Below are positions 5,368-63,461 of a stretch of DNA of 64,000 nt, in pieces. The translations under genes and the position numbers were made by a program. This DNA comes from Bilabrum cf. latius (taxonomy: Eukaryota): contig OZ237765.1 of the NCBI GenBank assembly GCA_965178125.1, forward strand, positions 1 through 64,000, in the 5' to 3' direction. The notes beneath the pieces are model-generated. The model was given only the letters and a program-made list of their open reading frames with translations. It did not search any database and was not told where the DNA came from. Each line of letters begins with the position of its first letter. Positions within the stretch are counted from its first letter, which is position 1.

Positions 5368-5717
5368 ATGGCTGCCAAGACTGTCATCAGAAGCGGTCCG
5401 CATTGGAGGATGGCTGGAATGAACTACTTGGAAGCCATCAACGTTGCCACGAACGCCTTGAGGCAGGTAATCAAGGAGCCGCGCAAGAGCTAGGTACTTG
5501 GCAAGAGCGCCTTCCAGTACAGGGAGTACCAGTACGTCGAGGGTGTTGAGCAGAAGCCTCGTGAGTTTATGTTTCATACTGAAGCAGTTCGATGAGTTTT
5601 TGTGCGAATATGTTCGTGACCGTCACGATCCAGACGGTTTGCCTCATGCCACCTCGTGCCAGCTTCTCGCGTTTCGCAGGCATGGTTACGGACAAGGGCA
5701 TCCAAGAATTGCAGTGA
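5368..5717 (+). CDS. ATP5F1E: Mitochondrial ATP synthase F1 subunit epsilon (one in-frame TAG)
   Basis: MAAKTVIRSGPHWRMAGMNYLEAINVATNALRQVIKEPRKS[TAG 5491]VLGKSAFQYREYQYVEGVEQKP matches the epsilon pattern WRxAGxxY..R..LKEP. Intron 5561-5679 (GTGAGT..CGCAG). Ends TGA at 5715-5717. Confidence 0.8.
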
Positions 5718-5834
5718 TTACCACCAGTACCGGTAGGATTGTGCAGCACATGCTGAACAGCCGATATACTTGAACTCTACATGAGATTCCATGAGGAAAC
5801 AGCACTCGAATAAAATCCACGCTGTTGTCAGCAT

Positions 5835-7706
5835 TCACGACATTTTCTCTTGCCCACTGCTTTTACCCTCTGTGCCACCGCCTGGGCCAACGCTACCATC
5901 GCCCGCCCCGGGAGGCGTTTCCTCCGTTTCTTCGCCAGCATCCATGGCCACAGAGGGCGTCATCGTGTCTCCAGGACCAGGGCCTGGGCCATGTATCCTA
6001 CTTGGGGCAGTGTGCCCACTCATGGTGCTACCTGCGTCGCTAATGGCCCCGGTGCCATCCCCCCGAGATCCGGCAACCGCGCTCCCTGACCTGCTCCGTC
6101 GTGGCCCCGCATCTGCACCCGCCGCTGGCGATGTGCGGATGGACGCGCCCATCGGGCCAATGCAAAACCGGAACAGATCACTCAGAGTAACCATTCCGCA
6201 CGGCTTGCCCTGCTGGTCCACGCCCACCACGCAGTAGCACCGAGTGGCGGTGAAGGTGTCCACCACGCGCCTGAGGCTGTCGGTGGGCCGGCACACGCGG
6301 AGGGCAGTCACGCCCCCGGATGCCGCCACTTGCGCTCGCCTGGTCCGCTTCACGGGGGCGTCCAGCACCGTGAGCCCTGGATCCGTGGCCAGGAAGAGCA
6401 CATCATCCCTGGACCAGAGATCCACCAGCACACGGGAGCTGGGGTCCACCAGGGGGACTGCGGCCAGCCGCCGCTGGGCCACCACCCGGAGCACGTCCAC
6501 CAGGGGCGTCTCCGTCGTGCAATGCACCACTCTATCTGCGCCCCATACGCCCACTCCCGAGTGCCCCACGGGTGTGTCCAGCCCCGCCAGCGCAGTGGTG
6601 GACTTGAACCTCTCCGCGAGGTGCTCCAGCACGGTCCCGTAGGTCAGCAGCCCGAGGGCCATGGTGCGGGAGGGGGGCGGGTACAGCATGCCCTCCCGCG
6701 CACTCATCACACCATGCCGGTGCGCCTCTGCTCCCTCGTGCTCGGCGGCGCCCTCCTGCGCCTCCCCGCTGGATCCACCAGGCCTCGCCCCTCCGGCGCG
6801 CCCCCCCCCGCGCCCCCGGCGGATCTCCCGCTGCCTCGCCAGTCGGCGGGCCAGCCCCACCGTCTCATGCTGCCGCCCCGAGGACGCGCCCAGTCCGCCC
6901 GCACGCGTGTCTGCTAGTGCACTAGATGGCCCGGCCCCGCCCGAGTCCCCAGCTGCCGATGCCGCAGCAGCTGCGAGCTCTCGCCCTGCTGCAGCTGCTA
7001 CCGCCTACACCTCGGCATCTTCGGCGTCTTCCTCCTCCTCTGCCCCAGCCGCTGCATCTGATGGAACAACTGCGACTCTATGGATACTGTTCGAAGCAAG
7101 CAGTCTAACTGCATCAAGCAGCGTCTGCTCAGGCGGTATCTGCACAAGGCCGTGTGGATAGTCCCACACCGGGAGCGGAGACCCATCCGCGGCAGCCTAT
7201 CGCATTCGAACCTCCTCGGCTTTCATTCGCTGGAATTGTTTCCAAGATGCTAACGTGTGGCGATTAAGAGCCTATGCCGCAGTGCTTGGACCACCCGCAG
7301 TGCCCCTCTTGTGGTACTCCAGCAAGATCTACGAAAAATCTGTCACGGTGACCATGCCCGCGAACTCGCCCCTAGCGCTATCCCACAATGGCGCTGCAGT
7401 AACTTCATTCTCAACCAGCGCGTAAAATGCCAGACGTAGGGGCACAGTCACGTCAAAAACAACCACTTTACTGCTTGCTGGCAATGCATCATAGCATGTC
7501 GTGGATGCCAAAAACGACGCGAAAGCTCTTCGAGCTGGAATTAGGGACCTGTCAAGGCTCCTAGTCGATGCATTTGTGGACGACTCTACGCTCGACATGC
7601 TTTGGGACGACACTGAAGCCGCAGATTGGTCGCCTCCTTGGCTTGGCAGCGTAGGCGGTACCACTGAAGGCCGCATGGCTCCATCTGTGGTACCATCTCC
7701 CTACAT
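5835..7706 (-). CDS. CBS-domain protein, AMPK/SNF1 gamma subunit-like (five in-frame TAG)
   Basis: TCYDALPASSKVVVFD..AFYALVENEVTAAPLWDS..FAGMVTVTDF is typical of AMPK gamma. One continuous frame runs to TGA at 5835 if TAG at 7701, 7329, 7272, 7197 and 7005 are sense. Alternative start at 7676. Confidence 0.85.
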
Positions 7707-8694
7707 GAGTGTAATACAGATATTAAAATACAAACAGGAGACTACCAAGCAACTAGTTTCCGAGCAGTAGCGCCGCTGGGGTTGTATACGAGAATCCAAT
7801 CCAAATAAACAGACTCATTCCTTATATTAATACGCTACATTGATCCCCGCGGACCGCGGTTGAGAAGGGAAGATCAATGCTAGAAAAATCGATCGGATCG
7901 ACGATATCGACCTGGATTCTCCCTACCTGATCGACGATTTCTGCACATTTCATATCGCGAGATATCCTCCCGGATTCCGACATATTTGATTGGATAGTTT
8001 GCATATTGAGCGAAATTTTTTTGCATATCGGGGGGTATTTTGCTTTGGAAATCGGGTCCCACGGGATGATTCTACACAGCTACCGTATGGCATATTTATA
8101 GAGGTTTTCGAGACATCTCCACCGGTTTTCCATTTTACATGTGTCAATCATGTCATATTCCTTCATATATCGGTCCTTTGCCCAAGAATACTCGAGCAGT
8201 TCGCAAAAATAGGGTGATTTCATCACTTACACGCTCATATCGGTCATCTGGAGGGCATATCAGAAAATTTCTATCACGTTCATAAGTATATCTTGAGCGT
8301 GCCATAGTGATTTCCTTGTCAATTCAAGCATCATGTCAATGTATGCCTGCCATATCGACGAGAGAAGCATCGCATGACATCCACCGAAGCAAAGGAACCT
8401 TCGTCCAAGACGCCACGGGCCTCGGCCGAGAAGCACCTCGTACTTTCGTCATTTCTCGCGATGGAATGAGGTCACAAGCTCTTTCCCTGCCTCAGTGCGT
8501 ATTGCAGTAGCTGTGATCGATTGGAAATGATACTTCACGGCTCGGCAGGGCTCAAGTAGAGCCTGCAATGACCAACATAACGCAATGAGCATCGTCCTCA
8601 GATTCGTGCAGCTCTGCTGCTTCATCACGATAACCATCCGATGGAAAAAGTGATCTACTCTCCAAGAACGACATTGGCTTTGATTTGTCAGTCA

Positions 8695-20483: not shown

Positions 20484-23400
20484 ATGTCTCGTGTGCAAAA
20501 TGGTAAATTAGAAAAGAACAAGCAAGCATGCGACTGGTGCCGGAAGGCTAGGCGAAAGTAAGCAAAGATTCGGTATTTACATCGACAGTCAGACGAGCAA
20601 ACTCCCATGCCACCACCAAGCCCTTCTCGAGTCCCACGTCCGCAGATGTGAAGGAGGAATACCGTGCAAGGAGTGCTCCAAACGATCATAGATGTGCACG
20701 TTTTTGATCCCAGTTAAGAAACGCGGGCCGAAGAAGGTATGGCGGTACAACTTACGAACTCGCTTCCACGGCTTGGTCGACGGTACATGCGGTACACTGC
20801 TAATGCTTCGAGTATCTGCCTCAACATTCTCGCTCGTAGGGGTTCAAGAAAGGTCAGCAGACGGATCAGCCCTAGCAACCTGCGGATGCATCAGCTCGAG
20901 ATGCTGTGACGGCGCTCGCAGCCTTGAGGCAGAATCCTGTAGACCCGGTTGGTTCCGGTCCGGCTGGCACTCTGCTTCAAGGTCAAGCAGCGATGAATGG
21001 AGCAACAGGAATAATGCACTCGCAGCCAACATCTCGACCTAGCATCGGCAGGTTTCCAGTCGGACCAGCTGCAAATGTAGAGCGGACGGGTGCGGGGAAT
21101 CCCCTGCAGACTGCTGTGACCGCCATCGCGGGGCCCACAGCCGGGACCAGTGAGACAAAGTAGCTGCCACACGGCTGGGAGACATCGCATCAAGCAAACT
21201 CAGGCCTGCAGCTGGCTCGATTCAACGAGCAGGATATGCGCACGGCACCAATGCACGGGGCGTACGCCCACGCCAACCTGATGCAGTTGCAGCAGCAGTC
21301 GTAGCAGCAGTACGTCCACGGAATGCAGGCACCACCGCAGTCGCCACATCAATTTGCAAGACACAATTATGCGCTCACCAGCGGTGCAGGCACCCCGGCC
21401 TCCGCCTCGTTCCCCGCCTCCTCCTCCTCCAGCCCTATGGGCGCCCTGGACATGCTGGCGGCCAGCACAGTGGAGCAGCAGGCCAGGGCCTCCCTCGCGG
21501 CGGCACTGAGCGGCGCGCGGGCCGAGGCAGCCGTGCACTCGAGGCGGGCAGACGCGGCGGCACGGCGGGCCCTCGAGTCTGAGGGGCAGCTGGCAGGGCT
21601 TCGGCGGCAGGTTTCCCTCCTGCAGCTGCAGCTGAGGGAGGCGGCCCGCAGCGGGGGCTTTCGCGGCGATAGTGGGGGTTCGGCTGTGGGACAAACCGCT
21701 GGGCAAGATGCAGTGGGGGGCAGCGCGTCCAGCGGGGGGCGCTCTCCGCTGTCTGCCCCCGCTGGAAATCTCCAGCCCCCGCCTCTGGTCGATGCCTTCG
21801 CTGGCCTCGTGCCGCCCCTCGCTCTAGACACGCGGCAGCAGGCTCTCCTGGACGCGTACTTCAGGGGACCGCACTCGCTGCATGCGCTGGTGGACGAGTA
21901 TGCGCTTCGCAGGACACTGGAGCTCGCGCAGTACGAGACGATAGCGGACAGGCGCGGCCTGCAGATCCTGCTTGATGGTCCGGTGCCCTTGCCTGCCGCG
22001 CCAAAGGGAACTGGCTCGAGTCAGACGTCGTACGATGGTGAACGTCAGAGTAACGGGTACGGAATAGAGCGCTTGACAGAGCCGGGCGAGGACGCTACGC
22101 CGCTGGGTCGCAAGAGAGCGAGGGGGTCAGTGGAAGGATCCTCTGGTGATCGTGATCGTGATCGTGGGCCTTGGGGACCACCTTCCAAGCGGCCCAGATC
22201 AGACTCTCCACTGAGTGACAGTCCGCTACCGCTGGGACTCGCCGTAGAGGCAGCCGCGAGGGGCATGCTTCGGTCGCGCCTGCACAGGGGGGCTGCAGCA
22301 CGCGCCCTCACATTCGCGTGCATGGCCACAGCTGCTGATCTGCTGGCCAGGGCGCGGGGCATTGGGGTGTCCTCACTGGCATCCCAGCGGGAGTTGGCTG
22401 GGCTCATGAGACTGGGGCTGCTGTACCTGCGGGTGTGTGAGGCGGCGCCCTCCCCAGAGAGCAGAGTAGCTTCCATCCTGCTCGGCGTGCTGCTGGGAAG
22501 GGTCTGCTCAGATCGACAGGGGCTGCTGGCTCGGTTGCATGCCGCGGCTGTGTCAAGGGGTTCAGGCGAAAAGGCAGACCCCGGGATAGCCGCAGCATTG
22601 GTGTATCATGATCAGGCGAGTGCGCCGGTCAGTCTAGATGCAGATTGGGCGCCTGGACGTGGTGTCTCAGGCTGGTCCTCCTATGTCGATGGCTTGCAGC
22701 ATACGTCGCCGTCCAATGATGATCCCCGTAGGAGTGATGGCAGGAATGCGGCATGGAGTGCAATGGACATGGCCCGCTCGCTCGGAGAGTCCACTGCATG
22801 GATGAGGCACAGCCTAGCACAGCACTCGGCCTCGCATGACAGCAGCAAGGCGTCCATCGCGACACTCGGTGAGGGTGCCCCAGCCTCGGCATGGACTGAG
22901 TCCTTCGCAGACCGGCACGGGCGGGGCTGGCCTGCAGCTGCAGTGCGACTCCTGGATGCAGCTATCGCCCGACTGAGAGAAGCTGAGTTGGCCGCTCGAT
23001 CTGCCCCGAGTCGCACAGGACACTCCTCTTCATCGGCGCCATCTGCCTCGTCTTCATCTTCGTCTGCCGCTGCTTCAGAAGTATTGCCTCTCTCCAGCAA
23101 CCCCCTGCACCTCCCCAGCATGGCCATATTGGAGGGAGCGAGAGCTACGCTGCTGGTCCGAAGGGAGGAGGCGCGGGCAGGCGGGCAGGTGGGGGAGCAT
23201 GGGGGCTCTGACGGCCGGAGGCTGGCAGCGGAAGCAGCGGAGAGGTGCGTCTTGGAGCTGCAGCTGCTGGGAGGAGGAGCTGCGCTCGGGGCAGAGGCGA
23301 GTGCGGCCGGGGCCGGGATGCAGTCGCCGGTGGTGTGGTCCGAGGAGTGCTAGCTGTGCGCGCGGGCTGCAGAGCAGGCGCTGCGGTTTGTGCTAGGGAT

Positions 23401-23641
23401 GGGCAGTAATATCGCGCAGGCGGGGGAGGCGGGGGAGGCGGGGGAGGCGGGGGAGGCAGGGGAGGTGTAGTCACAGATCGCAGACGAGGAAGGGGAAGAG
23501 GACGGTGAAGGTGATAGCCCGGGGGGTATGAGTTTCGACTCCCTCATCCCGAGCCAGGCCGCAGGCAACGCCAGCGACCGTGAGCGGTGGAGGAGCATGC
23601 TGGACACAGCCATACGGTTGCAGGTGCAGGGATTTTACTGA
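20484..23641 (+). CDS. Zn(II)2Cys6 binuclear-cluster transcription factor (six in-frame TAG)
   Basis: ACDWCRKARRK|CEGGIPCKECSKRS[TAG 20689]MCTFLIPVKKRGPKK|G after introns 20558-20645 and ~20737-20839. Further TAG at ~20873, 21161, 21302, 23351 and ~23468. Ends TGA at 23639-23641. Confidence 0.85.
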
Positions 23642-26331: not shown

Positions 26332-28036
26332 ATGCGTTCCATCTTGTTGCTGTGTTTATTCTGTGCATCTGCTGGACTCGTTACCGGATAGCAGCTCGTA
26401 AATGTGTCCCTGCATGGCACCACCGTTCCAGTTAGCTAGCCGATCAGCCCAAACTTCGTCGGGCTCAGCATTGAGGTCCCGTCTGCGGTAGAAATGATCG
26501 GTAGGCATTCGCAGGAGGGACCAAGACAGTCACTTTTGAACCTATTGGAGAATTTTGCACAATTTACGCCATCAGCAGAAGAACTGGGAACCATTCGAGT
26601 TGGCGGGAACTCGGCTGATGAGTCTGTCTTCAACCCAAGTGGAGATCTTCCAATAGGGAAAGACTATAGCATCACATGGGATGACATTTACTCGTACAGG
26701 GCATTCTCGGAGCTGTCGAATAGACGTGTATCCTTCGTGCTCGGTCTCAACTTCCAACGAGCATCCAACGCGTCATGGGCATTAGGGGAGGTACAGGCCG
26801 TCCAGCAAGCTGTCGGTTGGGCAGCGCTTGGCCCAAATTCAGCCATTGAGTGAGGTAGCTCGTTTTGAACAGGGTCCTTGGGCCGCCGTTGCACCGCAAG
26901 CATCACAGTTCTGATAGATCGAGAAGTGCAACTGCAACAGGTACTCGAACAGGGCCCTCACTGAGTGGCACACTTACACTTTTCGCAGGATCGGCAATGA
27001 GTGCGACATATTCAATGGGAATGGCATCCGGAACTCCAGCTACACCTATTCGCAGTACGCCAGCGAGTTCAAGACGTACGCTTCCACCATCCAGGGCGTA
27101 GGCCTTCCCCCGGGCAAAATCCAGGGAGCCACGTTCTGCTGCGAGCACGCCGACTTCGACAATGGGTTTGCCACTGATTACGTGACCCGCTTCAAGTCCG
27201 TGCTGGGCACCAATTCGTACCACCGGTACCCCACGAACCACTGCGGCAGCTCGTCCACCTCCCTCGCAGCCCTGCTCGCCCCCCGGTCCAGCGAGGGACA
27301 GGCCGAGTACCTTTCTCGCTTCTCCATCGCTTCCAGGGCGTAGGGTACCCCCTTCGTCATCGGGGAGAGCAACAGCGTGGCGTGTGGGGGCCAGGATGGC
27401 GTCTCGAATGTGATGGGCACCTCGCTGTGGGCCGTGGACTATCTGCTGTCACTGGCACGGATCAACGTGACTGCCATCAACTTCCACGGGGGACCCAAAG
27501 GAAGGTACCAGCCCATCGGATACAATAGCACGGGGGCAGGCACACCCCCTGACGTGCGGCCCCTGTACTACGGGGCCCTCCTCTTCAGCGAGGCCGTTGC
27601 CAACCGCTCCCAGCTGCTCAACCTCACGATGCAGCATACGGACAACGCACAGGTGCGCACCTGGATGGCGAGGGATGGAGACACGGGAGGCCTGCGTCTA
27701 GTGGTCGTGCACAAGGACCCAAATGCGACCGAGCCGGCCAACGTTCGCTTCGATCTCGGGGCGGGGGCCCAGGCCGGCGATGCCAGCACGCCCTGCTCCG
27801 ACGGGCAGCTGGTTCGGCTGCAGTCGGCCGGCGGCGTGCTGTCCACGTATGGGCTCAGCATCGCAGGGCAGACGTTCGACGGATCTCAGGACGGACGGGC
27901 AGTCGGGCAGCGAGTCACCGAGCCCGTGCACTGCAATGCGGTGCAATCCGGCAGCGAGGGTGCATCCTCCTGGGAATTCACCGTGCAGCCAGGGACCATC
28001 GCTCTGCTTCACCTGCCTCTGCCGACGAGTCGCTGA
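26332..28036 (+). CDS. Secreted glycoside hydrolase family 79 (beta-glucuronidase/heparanase-like; three in-frame TAG)
   Basis: Signal MRSILLLCLFCASAGLVTG, then FVGLSIE, IRVGGNSAD, EIGNECD (across intron 26850-26988), PFVIGESNSVACGG..GVSN, LWAVDY, NFHGG, RPLYYG. TAG at 26389, 26437, 27341. Ends TGA. Confidence 0.9.
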
Positions 28037-28191: not shown

Positions 28192-31100
28192 TCACTCCCT
28201 GCCCCCCGCATCTGTATCTTCGCTGCTCAACTCCGAATCTACTTCTGGCTCTTCAACCCCTCCTCCTCCCCCTGCACCGGCCCGCATCACCTCTTGCACG
28301 TGTTCCCTCAGCTCAGCGGTCACCCCGCACCCGGGCGCGCTCGCCATGGCCTGCAGCAGCTGCCGCGCTCCCTCCTCGTCCCCTGCCCTGGCCAGCGCGA
28401 CCACCACGGCGGCAGACACGCCCCGCAGCATGGTCGCGGCGCCAGGCTGGCCCAGTCCTGGCAGCAGCGTCGCGGCTGCGAGCCGGGGCCGCTGCGCCTG
28501 CAGGCACGCTCGCGCAAATGCGGTGGCAAGCCGGGGGGCCTCCGCCAGCACGGCGCGCCTGGGGTCTCCCCCTTGCCCTTGACCTTGGGTGTCGCGCAGC
28601 TGCTGCACCAGGTGCGCAGCCCCCCGCAGCGCCGCCTCTGCCACTGTCAGCGTCTCATCGGGCCGGCCCCCGGCCCTGCTGCTGCGCGTGGCAGCTTCAG
28701 CGGCTGCGGCCAGCGCTGCCAGCAGATGCGGCATACGCCTCTGCAGGGCTGCAGCGTCCCTAGCTCTCCCCTGCGCCGACAACTCAGGTACTCCCTGGGA
28801 GAGCGCGCTCCAGGCCAGTCCGGGCTGTGCTGCGAGGGCGGCTGCCTCGCATGCCATCTGCACCACCTCAGCCGGCTGTCCCTGCAACGGACCCGGGTCA
28901 CTGACCCGCGCAGAGTCGTCCTGCTCTGCGTCCGAACCGGCGTCATCAGGCAGAGGAGCCTGCTCCCACAGGTAGGTACCCAGCGCCAGGGCAGCAGCCG
29001 CTGGGGCTGGCGATGAGGCCACCTCCAGTGGGAGGGGCAGCTCGGAGGGATCCAGCAGGACCAGGGCATCGGGTGAGGCTCCGAAGGAAGCAGCCAGCTG
29101 GATCCCAGAGCCATCTCTAGAAGGAAGAGGCTGCAGCACCAACCACCGGATCAGGGACATGGACAAGTCTTCCATCCCTTCATCGATGTCTTCCTCGACA
29201 TCCACATCGCCCTTCTCCAGACCGCTGCCCTCCACGTCAGCACCGATTTCCCCATCTCCGCCTGCCGCCCCCAGGGGCCTGGTGGCTCCCGCAGGCACAA
29301 GCCCGACCCCCATGTCCCCCAGGCCGTCCACCCATGCCTCCCAATCATCGCCCATGCTCTCCTCACCTCTTGCAGGCTCCTCTGCATTGGTTCCATCTTC
29401 GCGACTCAGGTCAGGCTCCATTCCCATGGATCGCAGCCCCTGTAGAGCCTCTTCGAGGGTCCGTGCCCCTACCAGCGACCACGACGGCGACCCGATAGCG
29501 GCAGGCAGCGGACCGCATGTCGCGTGACCCACCCACTCGCTGGCCCAGTGGCGAGACATATCTGCATCAGGCACCGCAATGAGGGCCCCTGCAGCACCCG
29601 CGTCTGTCTCGCCGTCGCTGGCCCCCACCACAGTCTCCCCGTCCACGGCTGTTGCGCCTGGCCACGACAGCCCGTGCGCCCACCCCCCTCCCTCTCCCTG
29701 CGCCTCAGCGTCCCCCGGGTACACCGGCACGGCTCGGGGAGTGGGTTCCCCGTCCAGGCCCACAGCGGAGGCCTCCAACGCAGTGCGCTCCGCATGCCCC
29801 CGCGCAGTTGCCACCGCGTGCAGAGAGTCGCCGACATCTCTGCCAGGACTGCCGCCCAGCCCGCCCCGCTGCCTCTCGCGCTCCCCCCATGCCGCGGCGA
29901 GGGCTGCCGTGGCCGTCTCGGGGTGCTCTGGGGCGCAAGCGGCGGGTCGAGCGAGGCCCACCATGGCTGCCGCGATGCCTCCCGCCGCCGCCTGCTCCGA
30001 TCCTCGCGGTCGCACACTGGCCACCAGCTGGGCCACGGCGGCGCGGATGTCTCCCGGGCTGTACTCGAGGGGTAGGCCGGGCACGGGAGCGTGCTACCGG
30101 TGTGACGAGTGCGCTTCTTGCAGGAGGCGCAGTAGCCCCACAGCGCTACCCTCCATGGCGACCCCCTTGAGGAGGAAGGAGGCCAGGGCCCGCGGGGGCA
30201 CAGTTCTGGGTTGCATGCGCGGGGGCAGGCCCCACGTGTCCCACCACTGCGGCAGGGCTGTGCGGGTGGAGTCGCGGGCCGCGGTGGAGCCCATGAGGTG
30301 CTGTCTAGCGGCGGCCGCGTCGGGAGGCGGCTGTACCACCTCAGTCAAGGGTGCACCGCATGCAAGTGCAGCCGCGGCATGCCCCAGCACAGGGTCCACG
30401 TCAGCCGCCCCGTGGGCCAGCACCCCGGCAGCCACCCCCGCGGGGGCCAGGATGCGGGCCCGCTGGTCCCTATCCCAGAGGAGGCCCCTCCTGTTGGCCT
30501 GCTGCAGCATCGCAATGGCTGCCATGGCCACGTGCATCCCCTCTCTGCTGCGGGAGGACAGACTGGCCACCAGCAGCCGGATCGAGATGTGCCCATCCCC
30601 CAGCAGCTGAGGCCGGTCGGTGCGACCTCGAGCCGGCTATGAATTTGTGCCCTGCTCCGTGAGCTCCTCGATGGCCTCCATAGTCTGCATCAAGAGCGCA
30701 GTAGCACCGCTCAAGTCACCCTGCAGCAGCGCAGTGCGTGCCAGCTCACGGTGCACGGGCATCGACTCTGTCGTCGCGTCGGTTTCAGAAGAAATGCGCG
30801 CATTCCCATGACTAGGCCCAGATACATCCAATTCCTGGATTTTGAGCTGAATCTCCTGAGCTACGTCCGGATCTCGAATTTCTAGAGCGCTTTGGTACAG
30901 CCGCCTAAGGGCGTACAACTTAAACTGCTTGTCCTATTTTGGCAGCTGGCCACTCTAGCTATCAGAACCCCCTGACAACTCCTCGATTACACTCCTTCCG
31001 ATGGTACGATACAATTGAATAGCAACATCGTGCCGTTTCAGCAGCGCGTATGCCGAGCAGAGCACATACACCGCATCTGCGTTCGGCTGTTCGTACGATG

Positions 31101-31350
31101 CCTCTCCGTGCACCTGGGCCAACTGCTCCAGTATTTTATTGATTGGAGTAGGGATGTTCCCACGCTCGCTCGTCTTGCTGATTCGTTGCTTCGACACTCT
31201 CAAAAGGGCCTAGAACTTTGCCCGAGAATCATTAGACTACAAACGATGTCCGTGGTGGCAGTGCTTGAATAAGTTGGACACTGCAGACACTATACGAAGA
31301 GCCTGCATCGAAGGAAGGTGGATTCGAGCTCTCTTAGCGCCTCTTAACAT
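28192..31350 (-). CDS. Hypothetical Ala-rich helical protein, possibly organelle-targeted (six in-frame TAG)
   Basis: Track ORFs 30955-31203, 30637-30918, 30094-30570 and 28192-30084 are all one frame separated only by TAG. ATG at 31350 with basic N-terminus MLRGAKRARIHL. Ends TGA. Confidence 0.65.
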
Positions 31351-31446
31351 GGTCGAATCAACCGCAATGGACCGACGACAACGCGAAATGGTTCCGGTTC
31401 TTCCGGCTTCAAGTTGACACCTCGTGCGTATGAGTCGTAGTGGGCA

Positions 31447-40404: not shown

Positions 40405-40669
40405 GCTCCGTGTATGGGGCTTAGTCTAATGCTTGTGTTGCATTGCTGCAAGGCATTTTTTGTGCATTCGGAGCCGAGCCAGTCCCAGTGCGGCTCCTTT
40501 CACAGGGACTTTTGTCGGTATGTAAGATGAAATGCATGCTCGTAGCGTAGATACAATTGGTGGTTATAGTTGCTAAGATTTCGAAGTCCATACACGGGCT
40601 TTGGATCTGCTAGAATCTTTATGGCGAGTAATTAAACATGGTTCGGCGAGCAGTGCCTGGTCCCAACGA

Positions 40670-46800: not shown

Positions 46801-48608
46801 GATCTGGATGCGTTCGTTGCAGCCTGATCATAGCACCATGTGCAAGGAGGCTGGGCGATTTGAGCGTGCGACTTGCCAGGCACCAGCTTCCCACTGCACA
46901 CATTCGTGCCGTCTCACTCGTTGATGGATACCGCATCCATCCGGTGTCACGACCTGGACGCAGTATCTATTCAGATAGCGCTGCGCAACCGCGGCCAGCT
47001 GCACATGGATTGAATGCCGCTACTGATTTCAACACATCCCCGCAGCCCTGTGACACTGGCAAGCAGGCCGTCCTCCTGTCACTGGGGGTACCACCCACCG
47101 CTTTGTGCACGAAGGAAACGAACGGATTTTTCGGCATCTTGAAGCCCCTCAAGGTCTTAGGTACCCGGTACTGCATGCTAAGGTCAATTGCAGGCACCTT
47201 TTCTCGTGTCCCCAACTTCCGTCCGCTGGCTAGAGACGACCTGCTGCTGTTCAGGCATGCGGCCGATGCGACCAGGGGTGTGCCAATCGCGATTCGGGCT
47301 GCCCAGGAAGGACGGCCCCTCGAGCTAGCGAAGCGCTTGAAGGTGGTGCTCGCCACAGGTCTTCTAGTGCGGTGCACGCCAGTAGATTTGAAGGTGCTTG
47401 GGTCGGATAAGTTGCAAGCACTGGCCGACGCTGCTCCTGGCGAGGGAGTCGAGGTTATGGGATGCACGCCGCTAGTGGCCGCTGTTGCCCAGGGGCATAT
47501 TGAGTGTGTTCAGGTCATCCTGGAGGGAACACGGGAGGCGGCGGACACGCAAGCGGCGCGAGTACAGGCAGACTAGGGACCCAGGTGGGGTGACGGCAAA
47601 GGCAAGAAGGATGGGAGCTTGAAGGCGGAAGAGGTCAAGCAGCTGCTGTCCAAGGCCATCCTCTCTGGAGCGCTGAGGCAGCAACTCGCGGTCGAAGTCC
47701 GTGGGGGAAAGGGGCTGACTGATGGAATCGCGATTCGAGTGCAAATAGACCCAGCTGGCCTTGCTTCGGCCCTGGAGAGGCACGACTAGCCTAGCGATGC
47801 AGCTGCCCTGGTCGCTGGATGCATCGAGGGCCTTCTGCAGGAGGCTTCAGAGAGGCTGCATACTGCTGATGGCGCTGTCAAGGCACGTGCCAGGGCTGTA
47901 TTGGGGGTGGTTGCAACCGCCGATATGGAGGCGGTGAAAGCTGCCGGCGCTCGGGCGGATGCAGAGTTAGAGCGCATTGCCGCTGAAAGAGAAGGCTTGA
48001 AGAAGCAGCTGCGAGCCCTCGAGGATCGATAGGAATAGATTTAGTAGGCGAAACGGGTCGAAGCCGTGCTACCTCACCTCATGAAAGCGGCGACCACCCG
48101 GGCTGAGAAGGCCCTCGAGGAAGTGGTGGGCCCCGAGAGGGCATGGCTGCCGCTGGGTGTGGGCGATGAGTTTAGTCGCATTGAGGGCCTGCATGGGGAC
48201 GAACCCTTGAAGCAAGAGCTGCCTGTATTTGTCCCCAAGGAGGGGACGTCCGGTGCAGACGGGAACGGAGCTGGGGGCCGAGAGGCTTAGGGAACAGTAG
48301 ACGGTGAGATGGCTGAAGCAAAGGGGTAGTTGGCCGTGTCACTTCGAGACCGCCTTAGAGAGGCACTGGGTGGGGAGGGGTTGGGGGCGTGGTGGCACGA
48401 GGTCTAGCGCGCCGTGCAGGAGGCCCAGGGCGGGGGATAGGTATTTTGGGGGGGTGCAGGAAGAACTAATAGGGGAAATGCACGAAGGAGAGTATGGGGA
48501 AATGCTTTCCTTGGAGGCCAGGCCGGGGGTCAGACGGCGACTGGGGGCGCTTCCGCTGGCCAGCTTAACCCTTTTGAAGTTCCTGCACGGCTGCTAGACA
48601 TTCTTTGA
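43802..48608 (+). CDS. Large multi-exon ankyrin-repeat and coiled-coil protein (more than 12 in-frame TAG)
   Basis: Ankyrin motifs CPLRHAASTG, GRTPLMHAVAGG..GADP..DADGRN, GCTPLVAAVAQGHIECVQVIL. GT-AG introns near 44334, 44995, 45234, 45965 and 46546. Final exon 47046-48608 is open except for TAG and ends TGA. Some exon boundaries uncertain. Confidence 0.7.
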
Positions 48609-49032: not shown

Positions 49033-52000
49033 ATGTTGGGCTGGCTGGCATCAATCTTCTACATTGTGCATGCAGACACGGCCGCGGCAGAAGTTTGTAA
49101 CGCTGGCTGCACTACCATTGATGGAGTTATAATTGGATCCGGCGGCAACCCGGTTTCTGCTTCGTCCGTCGATGAATGCTGCACAAAGTGCAACGAGCAG
49201 TTCGGATGTTTTGCTTTTACGTATTTGTCAGGGTAAGATTCGGCCTAGCACGCACCCCAGTTGGCTTGCTGCTTCACATGAAGACCGTTGGGCGAACTCC
49301 TGCAACACACTCACACTTGCAGTGGTGGCGGGTGCTATTTAAAAGACAACACGGATACGCACATTCCTACACCAGGTCGTGTGTCTGGCAACCGGAGTGC
49401 ACCAATGCCGTCACCGCCGAAGCCACCGACACCTGTGCCCATCCCGGCCTCCTGCTTGCCCCCATACGACCATTTCGACTATTGCAACATGTCGCTGCCT
49501 GTGGAGACCCGCTCCCAGTCTCTCATCTCGCTTTTGCATGATAACGAGAAGCCCCCTCTGCTCACGGCCCGCGAGAGCCCCAAGGGCAACGTGAGCCGCA
49601 TCGGGTTGGTGGAATACGATTACGGTCTTAACGCGGTTCACGGTGTGGAGTCCAGGTGCGGGAGCAAGAAGAGCTGGGACGGAAATACGATTCCGAACTG
49701 TCCAACATCCTTTCCGTCTCCCAACATGCTGGGCTGCGCCTTCAACGAGACCCTGTGGGAGGCCATGACCGATGTGATCGGGCATGAGATGAGGTCCCTC
49801 TGGCTGCAGGGCGTCGGGGAGAACCACGGCAACGGGCTGCCACACATCGGTGAGAGAGAGGGAGAAAGGGAGAAAGAAGACTAGCAGGTGATACATCTAG
49901 CTGAATCCGATGGCTGTCAACATTCCTTGAGGTGTCCTCACCAGGCATCCCATCGCGCACTGCCACTGGCGCCATGTCCCTTCCACCGCTCTTGACCCCC
50001 ACCCTCGCAGGCCTCGACACGTGGAGCCCCAACATCAACGTGTGCAGGGACCCGAGGTGGGGCCGCTGCCAGGAGGTGCCCAGCGAGTCTACCTTCGTCA
50101 ACGGCCGGTACGGCGTCAGGTATACCCGCGGGCTGCAGAACGGGGACGATGACCGGTACTACCGCGGAGTGACGTGCATCAAGCACTGGGCGGCGTACTC
50201 GCTGGAGAACTACCACGAGCACTCGAGGCTGAACTTCACGGCCAACGTGTCCGACTACATGCTGGCCGCCGTGTACCTGCCTGCCTTCAAGGAGGCCGTG
50301 ACTAAGGGCAACGCGCAGTCCGTCATGTGCTCGTATAACGCCATCGCGCTGCAGAAAGGCAACAACTCGACCGAGTTCGGGCCAAGTGTGCCCACGTGCG
50401 CCTCCCCCTTTCTGGCAAACATCCTGAGGGAGCAGTGGGGATTTACCGGTGAGATTGCGAGGGTCTTTGCATTGCTGGCTTACCATGCCAGGAAATATTC
50501 GTTTGCAGTTTCCACGTTGCGAATCATTGGATACTGCGCGCCCAGATTCTTCTCTTCTTGCTGTTTACCCCGATTTACAGGTTACGTAACCTCTGACTCA
50601 GGCGCCGTCGATTTCATCTATTCGACCCACCACTACGTGGACAGTCTCGAGAAGGCCGCCTGCGTGGCCATCAAAGACGGCGTCACGGACATAAACAGTG
50701 GAGATGTGTACCGTGATCACCTGCTCTAGGCAGTGGCCGAAGGGCTCTGCAGCATGGACGACGTGAACCGTGCCCTGAACAACTCGCTGCGGCTGCGCTT
50801 CGAGATGGGCCTGTTCGACTCGCACGAGGGGCAGCCCTACTGGCACGTGAGCGAGCAGGACGTGAACACGACCTACTCGAGGGAGCTGAGCCTGTTCGCC
50901 GCCCAGCAGAGCACCGTGCTCCTGCGGAACGAGGGCAGCATCCTCCCGATCAAGAAGGGGGCCAAGATCGCGGCTGTGGGCCCCCACGCTGATGCCAACC
51001 AGGAGCTCCTCGGCAACTACCTGGGCCAGATCTGCCCGTTTGAGGGGTACAACTGCGTGCCCCAGCCGTACGTGGAGCTGCAGAAGGCCAACCCCGGTGG
51101 CTCCGTCACCTTCGAGCACGGTTGCGACGTGGACTCGCAGGACACGAGCGGGTTTGCAGCCGCGGTGCAGGCCGCCAAGGAGGCGGACGTGGCGGTGATC
51201 TTCGCCGGGCTGAGCCAGGAGGTGGAGAGGGAGGGATACGACCGCGTGAACATCTCGCTGCCCGGCGTGCAGCCCGAGTTCATCCGTGCCGTGCTGGCCA
51301 CGGGCACTCCAACTGTGCTGGTGCTGATCAACGGCGGCTCGGTGGCCATCGACGGGCTTGCCACGGAGGTGCCTGCCATCGTGGAGGCCTTCTACCCGGG
51401 CTTCTTTGGCGCCCCTGCCCTGGCCAGCGTGCTGATGGGGGACTACAATCCCGGCGGCAAGATGCCCGTGACCATGTACGAGTCGAGCATCGTGGACCAA
51501 GCCAACTTCCTTGATATGGACATCGCCCACCCGCCCGGTCGCACTTACCGTTTCTACACGGGTAAGCCCTCCTTCGCTTTTGCGCACGGCCTGTCGTACA
51601 CGACCTTCACGGTGTCATGGGACAGCGAGCAGGTGGGCCAGGAAGAGACCCAGCTGTGGACCGGTGCGGGGCCCATGTCTGCGGGAGGGAGCGGGCAGGT
51701 GTCCAAGACCTACACGGCCAGGGTGACCAACACGGGGGACAGAGAGGGCGACGAGGTGGTGTTCCTCTTCGTGAAGCCGCAGGAGGACGTGGACGCCGTG
51801 CACGGGCCTCACCCCGACGGTGGTGACCCGGGGGACCTGCCCCTCATCAAGCAGCTGGCGGGCTTCCAGAGGGTGCACCTCAAGGCCGGCGAGTCCACCA
51901 CGGTGACCTTCAACGTGGACTCCGATACGCTGGCCATGCCTCGGCGGGGGACTGGGCGCACGGTGGCGTGCCCCGGCACCTACGTGCTGGAGGCCACCAA

Positions 52001-52109
52001 CGGCGTGGACCAGGTGGCGAGCGCGGTGGCCCGTCTGGTGGGCGACGAGCGCGTGATCGACGCCTCTGTGGAGAACGCGCTGCTGGCCACCGGCGGACGG
52101 CCCCAGTGA
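49033..52109 (+). CDS. Secreted GH3 beta-xylosidase/arabinofuranosidase-like enzyme with N-terminal PAN/apple domain (one in-frame TAG)
   Basis: CCTKC..GCFAFTY..CYLK (PAN), Pro linker, PTSFP, WSPNINVCRDPRWGRCQEVPSE, KHWAAY, VMCSYN, GYVTSDSGA, EREGYDR, YPG, GRTYRFY. Introns 49233-49322, 49850-50010, 50449-50580. HLL[TAG 50727]AVAEG. Ends TGA. Confidence 0.92.
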
Positions 52110-58245: not shown

Positions 58246-61200
58246 TCACATGCCGCCTTCTTCTTCTCCTGGCTTGAGCACGTCCACCAGCACCACACCA
58301 AGCCCAGTCCCCGCCGCGATCAGACCAGAGATGTACAGGCTCAGACCAGACGACAGTAGCGCGACGGTAGCAGGCAATCCCATCACGCGGACTGGATTCA
58401 GCTGCATCTCGGTGTCCAGCCCGCGGGTCACCAGGTAGAGCGCGTGCCGCACTCGCTCCAGCCTCGTCCTCGTCTCAGGACCCATGGGCACGGGAGGCGC
58501 CACGATGAGCTCCTGCACGGTGGCTTCAATCCGCGTGAGCCTCCTCCTTTGAAAGGCACTGGCACGGTTCACCTGGATGCCGTAGTACATTAGGTATCCG
58601 AGCGCCGTCTAGAAGATGAGTGCGAGCACCACCGTCTGCGTGAAGAGCACGATGTACTCGTCTCGACTGAAGAGCGCGCTCCCCGCTGACGCCGCCACGA
58701 GCCCTCCGATGAACATGAGGGCAGCAAAGAGCGTCCCCGCCGCGAACAGCCCCGTGTACATGTTGATCCTAAGCATGTAGGGCCTGCCCACGTCCATTAC
58801 AGTATTGCGGACGTGCCACCACAGCAATAGGTTCTGCGGGTACAGAACGGGCAGGTGCAGCCGATGCAGTGCTCTGTGCATCATTGCCTGCGTGTCCTCG
58901 TGCCTGTGGTACAACGCCCGGTCCACGATGCGTCTCCTCATCGCTGCACCGTTCCACTGGGCCATGGACATTCGCTGGCATATCCCAGACTCCACGTATT
59001 CCTCCAGCAGACCCCCGTCCTACACCTTGGGCTGCTCCCAGCCGACCGCCCCGTGGCTGTGCCCCGCCATCTGAGCGATAGAGGTCACTTGCGGCAAGAG
59101 GGGCCCCGCCACCACCTGTCCCTACCCCTGTCCCTGTCCCTGGAATCGAACCCCCCTGCTGTGGCCCGCCCTCTGGCCCGACGCAGAGGGCAGTCGAAGC
59201 AGTCCGCGACCCCCGGCAGCGACTGAGGAAGACTGGCCGCTTGTTCCCTCACCGCTGCTCCTCACCCCACCCTCCGAGTCATCCGGGTCGGGCCCGGACG
59301 AAGACGCCGCGCTGCTGCCTCGGGTGCGCCGCCTAGCACCCCCTTGTCCCTCCGTGCCCCCTGTGCCCCTGCTCTCCGAGCTTGAGGCGCGGGACCTGCT
59401 GTCCCCATACGGGGATAAACCCAGCCGCAAACCGCTGGAGGCAGCCCGAGGCACTCCCCCTGCAGGCCTCCTTGCCGTGCTCCTGCCCCGCTGTGCATCC
59501 AGCGCACCCTGCCGGCCCAGCGGCACCCCCCCGCCCTCGCTTTGTCCCCTGCGGACCGGGCCTGGAATGCCACGACCCTCCTAGTCGCTGGGCACCCACA
59601 CCTCCCCTGCCGATCCCCGGTGCCGCGCCCCGCTACCCCGCTGCCGCAGCCCCCCCTCCGTGCCCGCTTCCTCCGAGACCGCGTGCGCCACCGGTCCATG
59701 GCGTGCGCCACCGTGGGGCACTCTTGGGTCCACCAGAGCCACCTGAGTGAGAGAGGCGCGGCCTCTGGCCCCCGTTGCCGTGCTGCTGGTGGGCAGCAAC
59801 ATGTCCTGTTCACCCGCGCTGCTGCCCCCTCCCGCCGACATCACTGATGCGTGCTGGCTGAGCACCTGTCGGATCTGCATGCTCTCCCGCCGCAGTCTAG
59901 AGGCGGTGTTGCGGCTGTGCACCCGCTTGCGGTCCATACGACGCTTGCTGCGAGTGCGCTGCCCCTTGCCCCCTGGGTTGGGAGTGCCCCCGCCCCCATC
60001 CCCGTGCCCCGCCTCAAGCTCCGCCGCCTCCCTGACCCCCTCCATCCCCTGTATGGCCGCCACCAGAGTGGCGCGGTGGTAGAAATTGGACCACACGACA
60101 GAGTGCCGAGCTGCCTGGGCCAGCAGGAAGGTCGTGCTGGGGGCACTGTCGGTCACGCCAGGCACGTCCACCACCTGCTTCAGCGCGTCGTTCTCCTCCT
60201 CTATCCTGCGTTGAGACCGCAAGGACTTGGAGTCCTCACCGGTGGGCTAGCCTGCAGCGGCACCAGTCCCCGCCCCTGCGGTGGTGCTGCCCTCCGCTCC
60301 GGCCGCGAGCAGCCCAGCGGGAGCGGCACTGCCATCCACTGCAGCCCCCCCTCCAGGTGCGCCCTCCTGCTTAGTCTAGCCCTGTTCCTCGTCTACCGGC
60401 GGCATCCCACTCTTTGCCCTCCTCTTCCTGTGCAGCTCGTGCAGCACACCATCCATAGCCTGCTTCTGCTGCGCTGCTATTCGCCCTTCCTAGGCCTGCA
60501 GCTGCATGGACCTTACCGTGTCTTCCATCATGTTGCATGTCCCCGCCTGCGCCCACAACTGATTGGCCGCACCCAGCCCCTGCACCACCTCCAGCGGTGT
60601 CTCCCTCGCCGCCACGTCCCAGTCGTGGCTGGCCAAGGCCCGGGCCGAGGAGGGGTCCAGCAGCTGGTGCAACATGCGGGCTGCTTGGTAGCGCCTGTGG
60701 TAGTCCAGCGAGGCCACCACCACAAACGAGACCTCCAGCATGGCGTTGATGGTGGTGGCGATGACATAGCAGCTCAGCAGCAGGATCCCTTCAGCCGTGA
60801 TGGGCAGAGTGCCCTGCACTGCCCGGATGACCACAGAGGTGCTGAACACCAGCAGCGAAAGCACGAACGAGAGCCGCAGCAATTTGCCCGCCACCATCGA
60901 CGCCCCCGACTTGATGTGCGAGGCCCATAGCACGTACCACAGGAGCATCTTCAGGGGCAGCGTGGGCAGCCCGTCCTCGTTGGTGCCCATTGCTAACCCG
61001 CCCAGCCGGGACAGCTCCACCCCGCTCTGACTGCTAGAGTGCACGCTTACACTGACGCTCGATGCCTCATCAGCTACACTTCCCGTCCACGCCTGGCTGT
61101 ACCCATGCGCAGACTGACCCATTGACAGCTCAGATCCCAGCCCAGCCCTCCGACGAGCACTGAGCTGCTGCTCCCGCGCCCCGCTGCTGCCACTGGAGCC

Positions 61201-63461
61201 TCCAGACGCAGACCGCCTCACCAGACCGGGAGCACCGCCCGTGCTGTCCTGCTAGTCCTATTTATTCCTCTCGCCGTCTCGCTGGGTGCGCTTCGCACCA
61301 TCCCTCCCTCCCTGGCCCCGTTGCTGGCTCTCGTCGGCATCCCGAGGATCGTACTGCCACACACTCGTCATCTCGTGGCTCCCGCTCCTGGACAGGTCAC
61401 GAGACCCACGCTGCTCCTGTCCGGACTTACCCTCTACCGATCCAAACTGTTCCCCAGAGGCCCCCAACTGTTGTTCCCTGGGCGCGCCCTCATCTGCCAC
61501 CGCCCTCAGCTCGTGCACCATCCCCAATCCACCAGTGGTGGGGACCTTCTCCGCCTCCACGCTGCCCTCGGTGGGGACTGCATCGCCCCTGGAAGCGTGC
61601 AGGTCGAGGACATCCCCGCCACTGGCAGTGGCACTGGCACTGGCACTAGCACTGGCTGCTTCCGTCTAGCTCTCACCCTCGCGGTCCGGCTGGGAGTTTC
61701 CGTCGACGGCCGGCAGCGGGGTGGCTGTCTCAGCAGTGCTCAGCTCCCGCACCGTCCGGAGGGAGGACTTTCGCGCGAGCTGCTGCTGGTCCTGCTGGTC
61801 CTGCCCCTGCACATGCATGCCAGGTGACAGGCTGCCTTGGGAGTGGGTGCGGGCCATGCCGGGCAAGTTGATGGACAGAGATGGAGGGGCAGGGGCAGGG
61901 GCAGGCGTCAGATCCCCGCCAATGGGCGGCAATGGTAGCGTAGCCGTGGCCGCCTGCGTGGGGTGCAGGTGTGATGGGGGTGCCTATCGGGGGTGACCCT
62001 CCTGGGGTACCAGCGGCTGCGCTGCAGTGTGATGCACTTTCCCACTGGACTGCACAATATCGACTACCCGCGAGTGCGAGGCACGTCCATGGTGCGACAT
62101 GGATTTTGATTCATTGCCACCACTGGCAGTGGCGGAGGCATCGGCGGATTTTATTGGCCTCTATTTCTTGCCCTTCCGCACGATTCTGCTGGTATTGCCC
62201 CGTGCATCCACAGCCGTGGTGCCTGGGTTTACGCTCAGCCTCTCCCAAAACGAGGCGGGCAGGCTCTCCGCGGACAGCTGCGACTCGAATCGCCAGTAGG
62301 TTGGCAGCGCCGGGCTCATGATCCGGAAGGCGTCCAGGCGAGCGGCCATGGAAGGGAAGACAACCTCTAGTCCGGTGCTGCTCGATGGATAATTGCGGGC
62401 TAGAGACCGCTCCATCTCGAGGTACAGCAGTTCGATAGGGAGACCGATCCAGCCGCTGAGCATTAACTTATTGGTGATTTCCTCCGCCGTCAGCGTGTCG
62501 GTATTCAACTGCGCATACTCTGCACGAGTGTAATATGCATACTTTATGGCCACTGTGGCCGGACGACTGCGACAAAGGTTATTGGGCAAACGAAAGGCAG
62601 AGGAAAATGCACCGAGCAAGTGATCAGCCTGTGCATTTCCCGGCATTCGACTACTGATACCGCTTTGCTGAGAGCTAATGCATGTGGCTTACAGAGCAAA
62701 AAGTCTGCGAACAATAGAGCGACGAGGCAGGCGTGCTGGTGGGGCTGTCATTGATGGAGGCTCGTAGGCTCGAATATGATGTGCCGCCACGTCTCCAAAT
62801 GGCATGCTTTCATCGAGCTCACACATGAAACGCGACGTACTCTACCGTGTACAACGACTCATAGCCCTTTTCTGTGTAGTAAGGCGCTACGATCATGATC
62901 ATCCACATTGTCTGGAGCAGTAGCTAGAAGATGAACGGCCCTGGGCTCAAGCAGCTCGAACAATCTGGAAGAAACGAACGGTTGTAGAGACCGTGGATTC
63001 CATGATACCACCATATGACTGGGGTAGTGAGTACGGCGAAATAATTATACATGAACTCGGGCAGGAACTGGTCCCAGTGAAACTCGACCTGCGATAGGAT
63101 AGGCACTTCCGCTAGCTCGACTGTGACACCCACTAAGCCCGCAAGACTTATTCGGGTACGAATGGTGGAAATGTATATGCATTACATCGAAAACATTCAT
63201 TAAGCATCTCACCCTCGCATCGTCGCGACGAAGAAGCAGCTCAACAGCCTCAGCCGTTCGGAGTGTCTGTGCGATTATGGGTATGCTCGGCGTCTGCACC
63301 GGTTCTTCCTTATCCACTGGATTCTGCCAAAAACTAGAGGACTTAGATTCAAGTCTACTTCGCATGGTGAGACCCCTTGTGTACCCAATGAACATCCGCG
63401 ATTGCTTTTCGTTTCGCGGTCGCAACCGCATTACATTATTTGGTCGCATCACTGATGGCAT
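58246..63461 (-). CDS. Large multi-pass membrane protein, PHTF-like (more than 10 in-frame TAG)
   Basis: Track ORFs from 62646 down to 58246 form one frame interrupted only by TAG and end at TGA. TM clusters plus DYHRRYQAARML, QNLLLWWHVR..G and PVRVMGL recall PHTF-family motifs. 5' exons (62820-63461) are approximate. Confidence 0.55.

Follow-up and report, generated by a model that had tools for sequence, protein, structure and literature searches.

Evidence for UAG as a glutamine codon in nuclear genes at a GC-rich chromosome end

Overview of the locus

The DNA analysed here, referred to as the window, comprises positions 1 to 64,000 of contig OZ237765.1 (assembly GCA_965178125.1), which is filed under Bilabrum cf. 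latius. It opens with a telomeric array followed by a subtelomeric repeat and continues into DNA with a guanine plus cytosine (G+C) content of 56–66%, packed with genes that bear short GT..AG introns of 88–158 nt. The combination of telomere, subtelomeric repeat and dense intron-bearing genes identifies the window as a nuclear chromosome end, more than 64 kb long, of a eukaryote with TTAGGG telomeres. Among its genes are those for the epsilon subunit of mitochondrial ATP synthase, a CBS-domain protein resembling AMPK gamma, a helicase of the FANCM/Mph1/Hef type, glycosidases related to the families GH79 and GH3, a serine carboxypeptidase of family S10 and an ELMO/CED-12 domain protein (Table 1). 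Within such real, transcribed and homology-supported genes TAG triplets lie in frame, at positions where homologues and close relatives carry glutamine. It is very probable that this nuclear code uses UAG as a sense codon for glutamine and retains UAA and UGA as terminators, which is the pattern of NCBI translation table 15.

TAG codons within reading frames

Codons were counted in the 16 longest non-overlapping frames bounded by TAA or TGA only, a set of 12,738 codons. These frames contain 84 in-frame TAG codons (0.66%) and neither a single TAA nor a single TGA. Read in its two remaining frames on the same strand, this DNA has TAG at 0.70%, TAA at 0.29% and TGA at 1.56%. The summed off-frame rate of TAA and TGA (1.85%) corresponds to about 236 expected codons, and that of TAA to about 37, where none is observed. 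The count is partly circular, since the frames were delimited by TAA and TGA. A non-circular set is provided by the stretches that align with homologues, namely residues 27–651 of the FANCM-like helicase, 148–631 of the S10 peptidase, 226–724 of the GH3 enzyme, and 95–195 together with 415–552 of the CBS protein. The 1,847 codons of these four genes include ten TAG, no TAA and no TGA. With stops drawn at the off-frame proportions, where TAG accounts for about 27%, the probability that ten out of ten are TAG is about 2e-6. The domain matches ATP-synt_Eps and ELMO each enclose one further in-frame TAG.

At least one TAG is present in 14 of the 16 long frames, and the two frames devoid of it adjoin the telomere. 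These two genes have only 11 and 12 glutamine codons, and because glutamine codons are so few there, the absence of TAG is compatible with chance. In the 16 frames TAG contributes 84 of the 672 CAG, CAA and TAG codons (12.5%), which is near the share of CAA (100 of 672). As the in-frame frequency of TAG is close to its off-frame frequency, TAG is not selected against in frame. The codons are spread throughout the frames and occur near their 3' ends too, and no frameshifts are found in the TAG-bearing genes. Two TAGs are non-coding: the one at 20837 supplies the AG of a splice acceptor, whereas the one at 26915 is intronic. Parts or tails of some stop-to-stop frames are probably untranslated.

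Two other procedures were abandoned. Frame length was rejected as a test for TAG, with 26 frames of at least 500 amino acids when TGA is read as sense, 18 when TAG is read as sense and 6 under the standard code. A filter based on G+C at third codon positions for choosing coding frames was dropped, as it picked many antisense frames.

The amino acid at TAG positions

For the helicase, TAG was written as X and the protein was aligned with the best 120 of 2,346 homologues. The TAG at 19899 falls into the motif TPxSF and the TAG at 18777 into FIGxSG, and in both columns glutamine is found in 120 of 120 homologues. Alignments with PDB entries show the same TPQ at the site of TAG 19899 in human FANCM, Pyrococcus Hef and RIG-I. 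At TAG 19101, glutamine is the commonest residue (34 of 120), and two other TAG sites of the helicase correspond to gaps or variable columns.

Close relatives give a uniform picture, with glutamine at four of the four window TAG sites covered by their proteins or DNA. In the CBS protein, the relative P0243 has glutamine at window residues 162 and 181, and the relatives P0241 and P0296 have it at residue 270. P0296 is 92% identical to the window protein, and P0243 and P0241 are 61–69% identical (BLASTP). In the GH3 gene, the comparison is provided by L001, a metagenome contig of 8.9 kb and 57.7% G+C with an orthologue of about 75% DNA identity to the window, which encodes glutamine at the codon of window TAG 50727. 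Conversely, a TAG of L001 itself (8455) aligns with a glutamine of the window, in a column where glutamine is the commonest residue (42 of 119 homologues). Five frames of L001 amount to 2,127 codons with 12 in-frame TAG, no TAA and no TGA; its stops are TAA in one case and TGA in three. The UAG trait thus appears to be common to two organisms whose GH3 genes are about 25% divergent at the DNA level, and would therefore be a trait of a clade and not a strain oddity.

A protein predicted with the standard code, P0242, is 98% identical to the window CBS protein and ends exactly at the window TAG of residue 162, and P0243 ends at a position where the window has glutamine. In public protein collections, standard-code gene callers have split genes of this organism and of its relative at TAG (P0121, P0241, P0242, P0243 and P0296). 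Such fragments include a 111-residue piece ending at TAG, the proteins P0241 and P0243, into which a CBS gene lying on a single contig has been divided, and P0121, a truncated GH3 protein whose first 40% is missing. Annotation or contamination screens of these assemblies need table 15.

Termination codons

The 16 frames end in TGA (12 frames) or TAA (four frames). In all 16 the G+C fraction drops behind the terminator, from 0.57–0.75 in the last 150 nt to 0.41–0.57 in the next 150 nt. For the four frames ending in TAA the corresponding values are 0.61–0.69 and 0.41–0.54. Three of the four TAA ends are followed by 74–138 further codons, with a G+C fraction of 0.41–0.45 in the next 150 nt. C-termini that are fixed by homology end in TGA, both in the S10 peptidase, where position 419 of the 420 in the profile is reached, and in the GH3 enzyme, where window and L001 terminate at matching positions; no homology-fixed C-terminus ends in TAG. 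The case for TAA as a stop comprises the four frame ends of the window and one in L001.

Spliced contigs and independent DNA

Parts of the region 3400–8400 were found in 15 sequencing runs, none of which is on record as RNA. Four runs (X5–X8) were compared with the window over 15401–35400; the kinds of run are guessed, and RNA was inferred from intron-less joints alone. The 139-nt GT..AG intron 26850–26988 is missing from X6, X7 and X8, in whose contigs 26849 is directly followed by 26989. Two further GT..AG introns are skipped in X6 and X7, whose contigs connect 20557 with 20646 and 20734 with 20838. A contig of X5, by comparison, is colinear with the genome over 23428–28191. X6–X8 thus include spliced copies, and X5 behaves like the DNA of a different sample.

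At the TAG positions no other letters are found in X5–X8, and none of the three differences listed over the 20 kb affects a TAG. Of the 30 in-frame TAGs that lie outside introns in 15401–35400, at least 25 are covered by X6 contigs without any other letter, including all seven of the helicase (contigs 17445–18730 and 18711–20356) and all three of the GH79-like gene. Contigs of X7 and X8 cover at least 12 TAGs of the same region, and five in-frame TAGs of 20873–23468 are without cover among the RNA-type pieces listed. In these intron-less contigs, from runs whose kinds are guessed, UAG is therefore present unedited. Since the TAGs are unchanged in the spliced contigs as well as in the DNA run, editing, complete splicing-out and assembly error are not supported.

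At 18069–18735 each of the four runs shows a contig depth of 107–1,895 and numerous loose ends. This segment encodes a poly-Ser/low-complexity insert of the helicase, and the extra depth consists of short matches of other sequences and does not stem from the helicase gene. In addition, words nearly identical to the window occur in runs filed under at least eight organism labels as well as under 'algae metagenome' and 'protist metagenome'. As a lead only, this would fit a small heterotroph carried along as a contaminant or as a partner in co-cultures.

Assessment of the glutamine assignment

Every TAG named in the initial annotation (in the ATP synthase epsilon, AMPK-gamma-like, S10, GH79 and GH3 genes and seven times in FANCM) is present and in frame. 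Its proposal of a reassignment instead of pseudogenes agrees with the unchanged TAGs of the intron-less contigs and of the independent DNA run. Glutamine, likewise its suggestion, is borne out by the two invariant helicase columns, by the close relatives and by the relative's TAG opposite a window glutamine, and the retention of UAA and UGA as stops by frame ends and falling G+C in 16 of 16 frames. The claim of a genome-wide reassignment stands as far as it concerns the change across genes, whereas 'genome-wide' is an extrapolation from the 64-kb window and one 8.9-kb contig.

Several observations weigh against glutamine as the general meaning of UAG. The helicase TAG at 19002 (residue 436) lies in a column with leucine in 71, methionine in 32 and glutamine in 2 of 120 homologues. 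Residues 162 and 181 of the AMPK-gamma-like protein, both glutamine in a close relative, are aspartate in 36 and arginine in 27 of 47 distant homologues, respectively. The column of GH3 TAG 50727 contains Glu 29, Lys 20, Ser 18 and Gln 13 times among 119 homologues, and the TAG sites of the S10 and GH79 proteins align to a gap or threonine. Residues at most two positions away from TAG are enriched 2.8-fold for lysine compared with 1.8-fold for glutamine (permutation p 0.008 for glutamine), but the neighbours of TAG say little on its meaning. No tRNA gene of any kind was detected by ARAGORN in the window or in the relative contigs L001 and L002, Rfam at gathering thresholds gave no match in the window or L001, and the 64-kb window contains no eRF1 gene. 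Moreover, the evidence derives from one chromosome end, X6 as the run covering most TAGs is flagged 'RNA? (probably DNA)', and the run records are assembled contigs from which minority variants are dropped. Finally, the frame 31450–34506 has only two TAGs, located 38 and 40 codons before its TGA, and here UAG could still act as a terminator. Residues 162 and 181 of the AMPK-gamma-like protein and the GH3 site, at which distant homologues do not favour glutamine, are variable, and the pattern fits recent CAG-to-TAG transitions.

By analogy with other reassigned lineages, UAG would be read by a tRNA-Gln with the anticodon CUA that derives from tRNA-Gln(CUG), and eRF1 would have lost or weakened its recognition of UAG while still recognising UAA and UGA. 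By the same analogy, new TAG codons may arise mainly by C-to-T transitions from CAG.

The late position of both TAGs in the frame 31450–34506 would suit an ambiguous code, in which UAG specifies glutamine within genes and still terminates in some contexts, for example near the 3' end. Codes of this kind are described in ciliates, such as Condylostoma and karyorelictids, and the ends of the proteins are not visible here, as contigs give no transcript ends. This alternative is nevertheless improbable. The frequency of TAG in frame (0.66%) is close to that off frame (0.70%), the codons lie all along the frames with the 3' ends included, and the C-termini of the S10 peptidase and, in two species, of the GH3 enzyme are formed by TGA. 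In addition, the fall in G+C follows TGA or TAA in every one of the 16 frames.

Slightly less can be granted to a second improbable scenario, according to which UAG is formally a stop that the near-cognate tRNA-Gln(CUG) reads through by virtue of a weakened eRF1, with no dedicated tRNA-Gln(CUA). Near-cognate tRNA-Gln reading UAG or UAA has been reported in standard-code organisms (PMC13192750), and the 64 kb of the window plus the 8.9 kb of L001 contain no tRNA genes at all, and thus no tRNA-Gln(CUA). However, decoding would have to be nearly complete at every site, given that the helicase gene alone has seven TAGs, that a single frame can hold as many as 12 and that two are at glutamines of catalytic motifs. 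Leaky readthrough is not known to give such near-complete decoding. In addition, TAG is not depleted in frame.

It is highly improbable that TAG and TAA both encode glutamine, as in translation table 6, and that TAA is merely rare in GC-rich DNA. TAA is indeed rare off frame, one TAA stop is directly followed by TGA (3073–3078), and glutamine for UAR is the commonest variant code (PMC5304391, PMC11687900). However, in-frame TAA is absent from 12,738 codons against the expectation of about 37, and four of the 16 frames end in TAA before DNA of lower G+C. One frame of L001 also ends in TAA.

That the TAGs are untranslated, representing pseudogene mutations, assembly errors, edited sites or unrecognised introns, has a negligible probability: two of the 84 are intronic or at a splice site and several frames lack a known family, but ten of ten stops in the homology-defined stretches are TAG although TGA is twice as common off frame, frameshifts are absent, the same letters recur in an independent DNA run and in three intron-less contig sets, a gene predicted in a relative with the standard code is cut off at the site of a window TAG, and a relative has TAGs of its own at other glutamine sites.

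Placement of the organism

In an exhaustive search with the CBS protein, Cafeteria roenbergensis was the best named match, with 260 bits over one stretch (residues 95–598). Among the named matches it was followed by Pythium with 171 bits and by nematodes, Diphylleia, a choanoflagellate and Balamuthia with about 140–150 bits; 20 of the 150 matches listed are named, and alveolates are absent among the best named ones. In a maximum-likelihood tree (LG+G4, 26 sequences, 334 columns, midpoint root) the window protein forms a group with Cafeteria roenbergensis and two further proteins (support 100/99). This group is nested in a larger clade (100/99) that also contains Pythium as well as nine ochrophytes and is separate from opisthokont, amoebozoan and Diphylleia sequences. 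The proteins of the window and of Cafeteria roenbergensis are 54% identical over 306 trimmed alignment columns. On the evidence of this one gene and a midpoint root, the organism is likely to be a stramenopile near the bicosoecids, and probably a heterotrophic one allied to them. With such an affinity, the change of code would be independent of Iotanema and of ciliates. The independent origin considered in the initial annotation thus gains support from the position of the CBS protein beside Cafeteria, for which the consulted text of PMC6972860 reports a non-standard code in the mitochondrion only (UGA = Trp) and mentions none for the nucleus.

Other proteins contributed little to the placement. 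The matches of the FANCM-like helicase are mostly fungal at about 35% identity, and those of the GH3 enzyme are taxonomically mixed, with oomycetes, choanoflagellates, amoebozoans and a euglenid among them; both are uninformative. A word-indexed search with the CBS protein returned ochrophyte names only, but an ochrophyte alga was rejected in favour of the Cafeteria group on the results of the exhaustive search and of the tree. Ribosomal protein eS19 of the relative scored lower against fungal ribosomes in the PDB (77–92 bits) than against those of Euglena (110 bits) or Toxoplasma (96 bits). With this protein the ESM Atlas confirmed the family, and the taxa listed are archaeal and of no use for placement. 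An aphelid identity, raised by the fungal FANCM matches and the association with algal cultures, was set aside as less likely in view of the CBS tree, the scores of eS19 and the use of TAA as a stop.

Relation to known variant codes

UAG and UAA nearly always change meaning together. Only few cases in which the two differ are named in PMC11687900. Glutamine for UAG alone is known from Iotanema spirale, Protocruzia tuzeti and two independent lineages of phyllopharyngean ciliates (PMC5304391, PMC11687900), in agreement with the prior knowledge of Iotanema and a few ciliates on which the initial annotation drew. UAG is read as leucine in the rhizarian exLh (PMC5304391, PMC11687900) and also in a ciliate (PMC11687900), and as serine in Scotinosphaera (PMC5304391, PMC11687900); an uncultured ciliate combines lysine for UAA with glutamate for UAG (PMC11687900). 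Glutamine for UAR is found in many ciliates, in ulvophytes, hexamitids and Amoeboaphelidium, and Amoeboaphelidium protococcarum is cited as reading TAG and TAA as glutamine (PMC6299283 and PMC5304391, citing Karpov 2013, and PMC6394959). The attribution of NCBI table 15 to Blepharisma is described as wrong (PMC5304391, PMC11687900). The code variant as such is already known; the lineage is apparently new.

Iotanema spirale shares with the window a reassignment that is confined to UAG and leads to glutamine, with UAA and UGA as stops, and there, too, the tRNA-Gln(CUA) was predicted rather than shown (PMC5304391). However, Iotanema is an unrelated metamonad (Fornicata) that was studied by its transcriptome and uses UAA as main stop (PMC5304391), whereas the evidence from the window is genomic, from DNA of about 60% G+C with TGA as main stop (12 of 16), and the tree places it in the stramenopiles. 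In Protocruzia tuzeti and the phyllopharyngeans the usual pairing of UAG and UAA is likewise broken in favour of glutamine for UAG only (PMC11687900). The window differs from these ciliates in that its TTAGGG repeats cap a chromosome end extending over more than 64 kb, on which many genes and GT..AG introns are found, and in that its CBS protein does not group with alveolates.

Amoeboaphelidium protococcarum is similar in that it is a protist outside the ciliates, has introns, was found with algal cultures and is cited for TAG as glutamine. In the window, however, TAA appears to be a stop (four of 16 ends and none in frame), and the CBS protein groups with stramenopiles and not with opisthokonts. 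The rhizarian exLh and Scotinosphaera also represent non-ciliate nuclear genomes with a change of UAG alone (PMC5304391, PMC11687900). The amino acid differs from that of the window, where two invariant glutamine columns and all comparisons with close relatives point to glutamine. Cafeteria roenbergensis resembles the window in its GC-rich stramenopile genome with few short introns, the nuclear genome having about 70% G+C and 1.7–1.9 introns per gene (PMC6972860). The lineage of the window would have changed its code after the divergence from Cafeteria.

A full-text literature search, with most subscription journals outside its reach, yielded no report of a nuclear stop reassignment in any stramenopile. 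The chances are about even that the window represents the first such case, with an independent origin of glutamine for UAG only in a GC-rich lineage of heterotrophic flagellates near the bicosoecids. Most earlier cases are AT-rich, and if the assignment is correct it would widen the range of genomes in which UAG has been reassigned. With no non-standard nuclear code reported in Cafeteria, the change could be dated on a short branch, and the relatives of the lineage are culturable. The combination of TGA-dominated stops and a GC-rich genome would provide a test case for codon capture, in which GC pressure eliminates UAG stops before a tRNA-Gln(CUA) is gained, and would bear on codon-capture and ambiguous-intermediate models of code change. 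Moreover, the recoded lineage and standard-code Cafeteria would form a fresh pair for the question how eRF1 tells UAG from UAA.

Genes, frames and repeats of the window

Table 1. Features of the window and of the relative contig L001.
Feature	Position	Strand	Basis and remarks
Telomere, CCCTAA x 242 (TTAGGG on the other strand)	1..1453		Sequence
Subtelomeric repeat, 53-bp unit, 6.3 copies	1455–1789		Follows the telomere
EGF-domain protein and WD40 protein, the two telomere-nearest genes	1447–5194		No TAG; both end in TAA
Mitochondrial ATP synthase epsilon, first exon	5368..5568	+	In-frame TAG 5489–5491; GTGAGT intron follows
CBS-domain protein, AMPK-gamma-like	5838..7814	-	Pfam CBS; PDB AMPK gamma-1, 115 bits; in-frame TAGs 7329–31, 7272–74, 7197–99, 7005–07, additional 7701–03 upstream; ends in TGA
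FANCM/Mph1/Hef-like helicase, 1045 codons	17173..20307	-	Pfam DEAD, ResIII, Helicase_C; PDB human FANCM 2e-86; seven in-frame TAGs at 19899, 19770, 19101, 19002, 18777, 18213, 17949 (first base, - strand); ends in TGA
Long frame, 945 codons, no family match	20804..23638	+	6 TAGs, the first (20837) at the splice-site AG; ends in TGA
GH79-like glycosidase	26335..28036	+	Exons to 26849 and from 26989; TAGs 26389, 26437, 27341; ends in TGA
Two long frames, 1019 codons (2 TAG) and 1084 codons (6 TAG), no family match	28195..34506	-	
S10 serine carboxypeptidase	35788..37689	-	In-frame TAGs 37009–11 and 36991–93, both in a variable loop; ends in TGA
ELMO/CED-12 domain frame	38110..40563	-	6 in-frame TAGs, one within the domain match; ends in TAA
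Frame with weak ankyrin match	46803..48605	+	10 TAGs
GH3 beta-xylosidase-like	49435..52109	+	Exons about 49435–49851, 50010–50453, 50577–52106; TAG 50727–29; ends in TGA
Long frame, no family match	52352–53956	+	8 TAG; ends in TAA
Long frame, no family match	55464–58085	+	10 TAG; ends in TGA
Long frame, 1480 codons, no family match	58249–62688	-	12 TAG; ends in TGA
L001 frames: isochorismatase-domain, ribosomal protein eS19, PH-domain, two GH3 exons			

The Pfam match ATP-synt_Eps (E 4.9e-10) covers residues 13–59 of the epsilon subunit and spans the TAG at residue 42. In the AMPK-gamma-like frame, the upstream TAG at 7701–7703 may lie before the start of the gene. The S10 peptidase is matched by Pfam Peptidase_S10 (5.5e-70) from profile position 10 onwards and by cathepsin A in the PDB. 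ELMO_CED12 (8.9e-07) matches residues 397–507 of the ELMO frame, which has no match in the PDB. Assignment of the GH3 enzyme is based on the Pfam domains GH3 N, GH3 C and Fn3-like and on tblastn of the protein P0122. The GH79-like protein resembles GH79 beta-glucuronidases of the PDB (1.5e-23), and its Pfam match GH79C is weak. Altogether, Pfam assigned no family to six of 18 long frames, and two weak matches (GH79C and ankyrin) were below the curated cut-off. Ten shorter frames (nine in 40.8–46.8 and 34.6–35.6 kb, and 63452–64000) yielded no Pfam match in nine cases and a sub-threshold match in one. No rRNA was found in the window.

The two frames at 28195–34506 are in phase with each other, with just one TGA (31447–31449) between them, and an X6 contig (29810–31936) crosses the junction. 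They could be adjacent genes that share the frame by chance; alternatively, the TGA could be held by an intron or represent a read-through or selenocysteine-type site. A spliced X6 contig of 4,532 nt within 23572–28242 covers the family-less frame 23829–26252 together with the whole GH79-like gene. Either the transcripts of the two overlap, or much of 23829–26252 is a long 5' leader of the GH79-like gene, in which case some of the seven TAGs of this frame would be non-coding.

Some TAGs are clustered. Four lie within six codons at 48030–48047 (LEDRxExIxxAKR), and others are embedded in sequence rich in glutamine, at 21302 (QQQSxQQY) as well as at 58032 and 58038 (LGQxRxHMMSLQSQQQQ). When read as glutamine, the clusters look like common coiled-coil or poly-Q sequence.

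Between the subtelomeric genes and the FANCM-like gene, two arrays of a 174-bp unit occupy 8696–9146 and 9650–10791. A frame at 8634–10967 with six TAGs is an artefact of these repeats. Unrelated to the 174-bp unit is a 173-bp satellite at 11260–15244, which consists of 23 copies that are 98% alike. Its strand asymmetry is very strong, with a GC skew of -0.45 over 12–16 kb.

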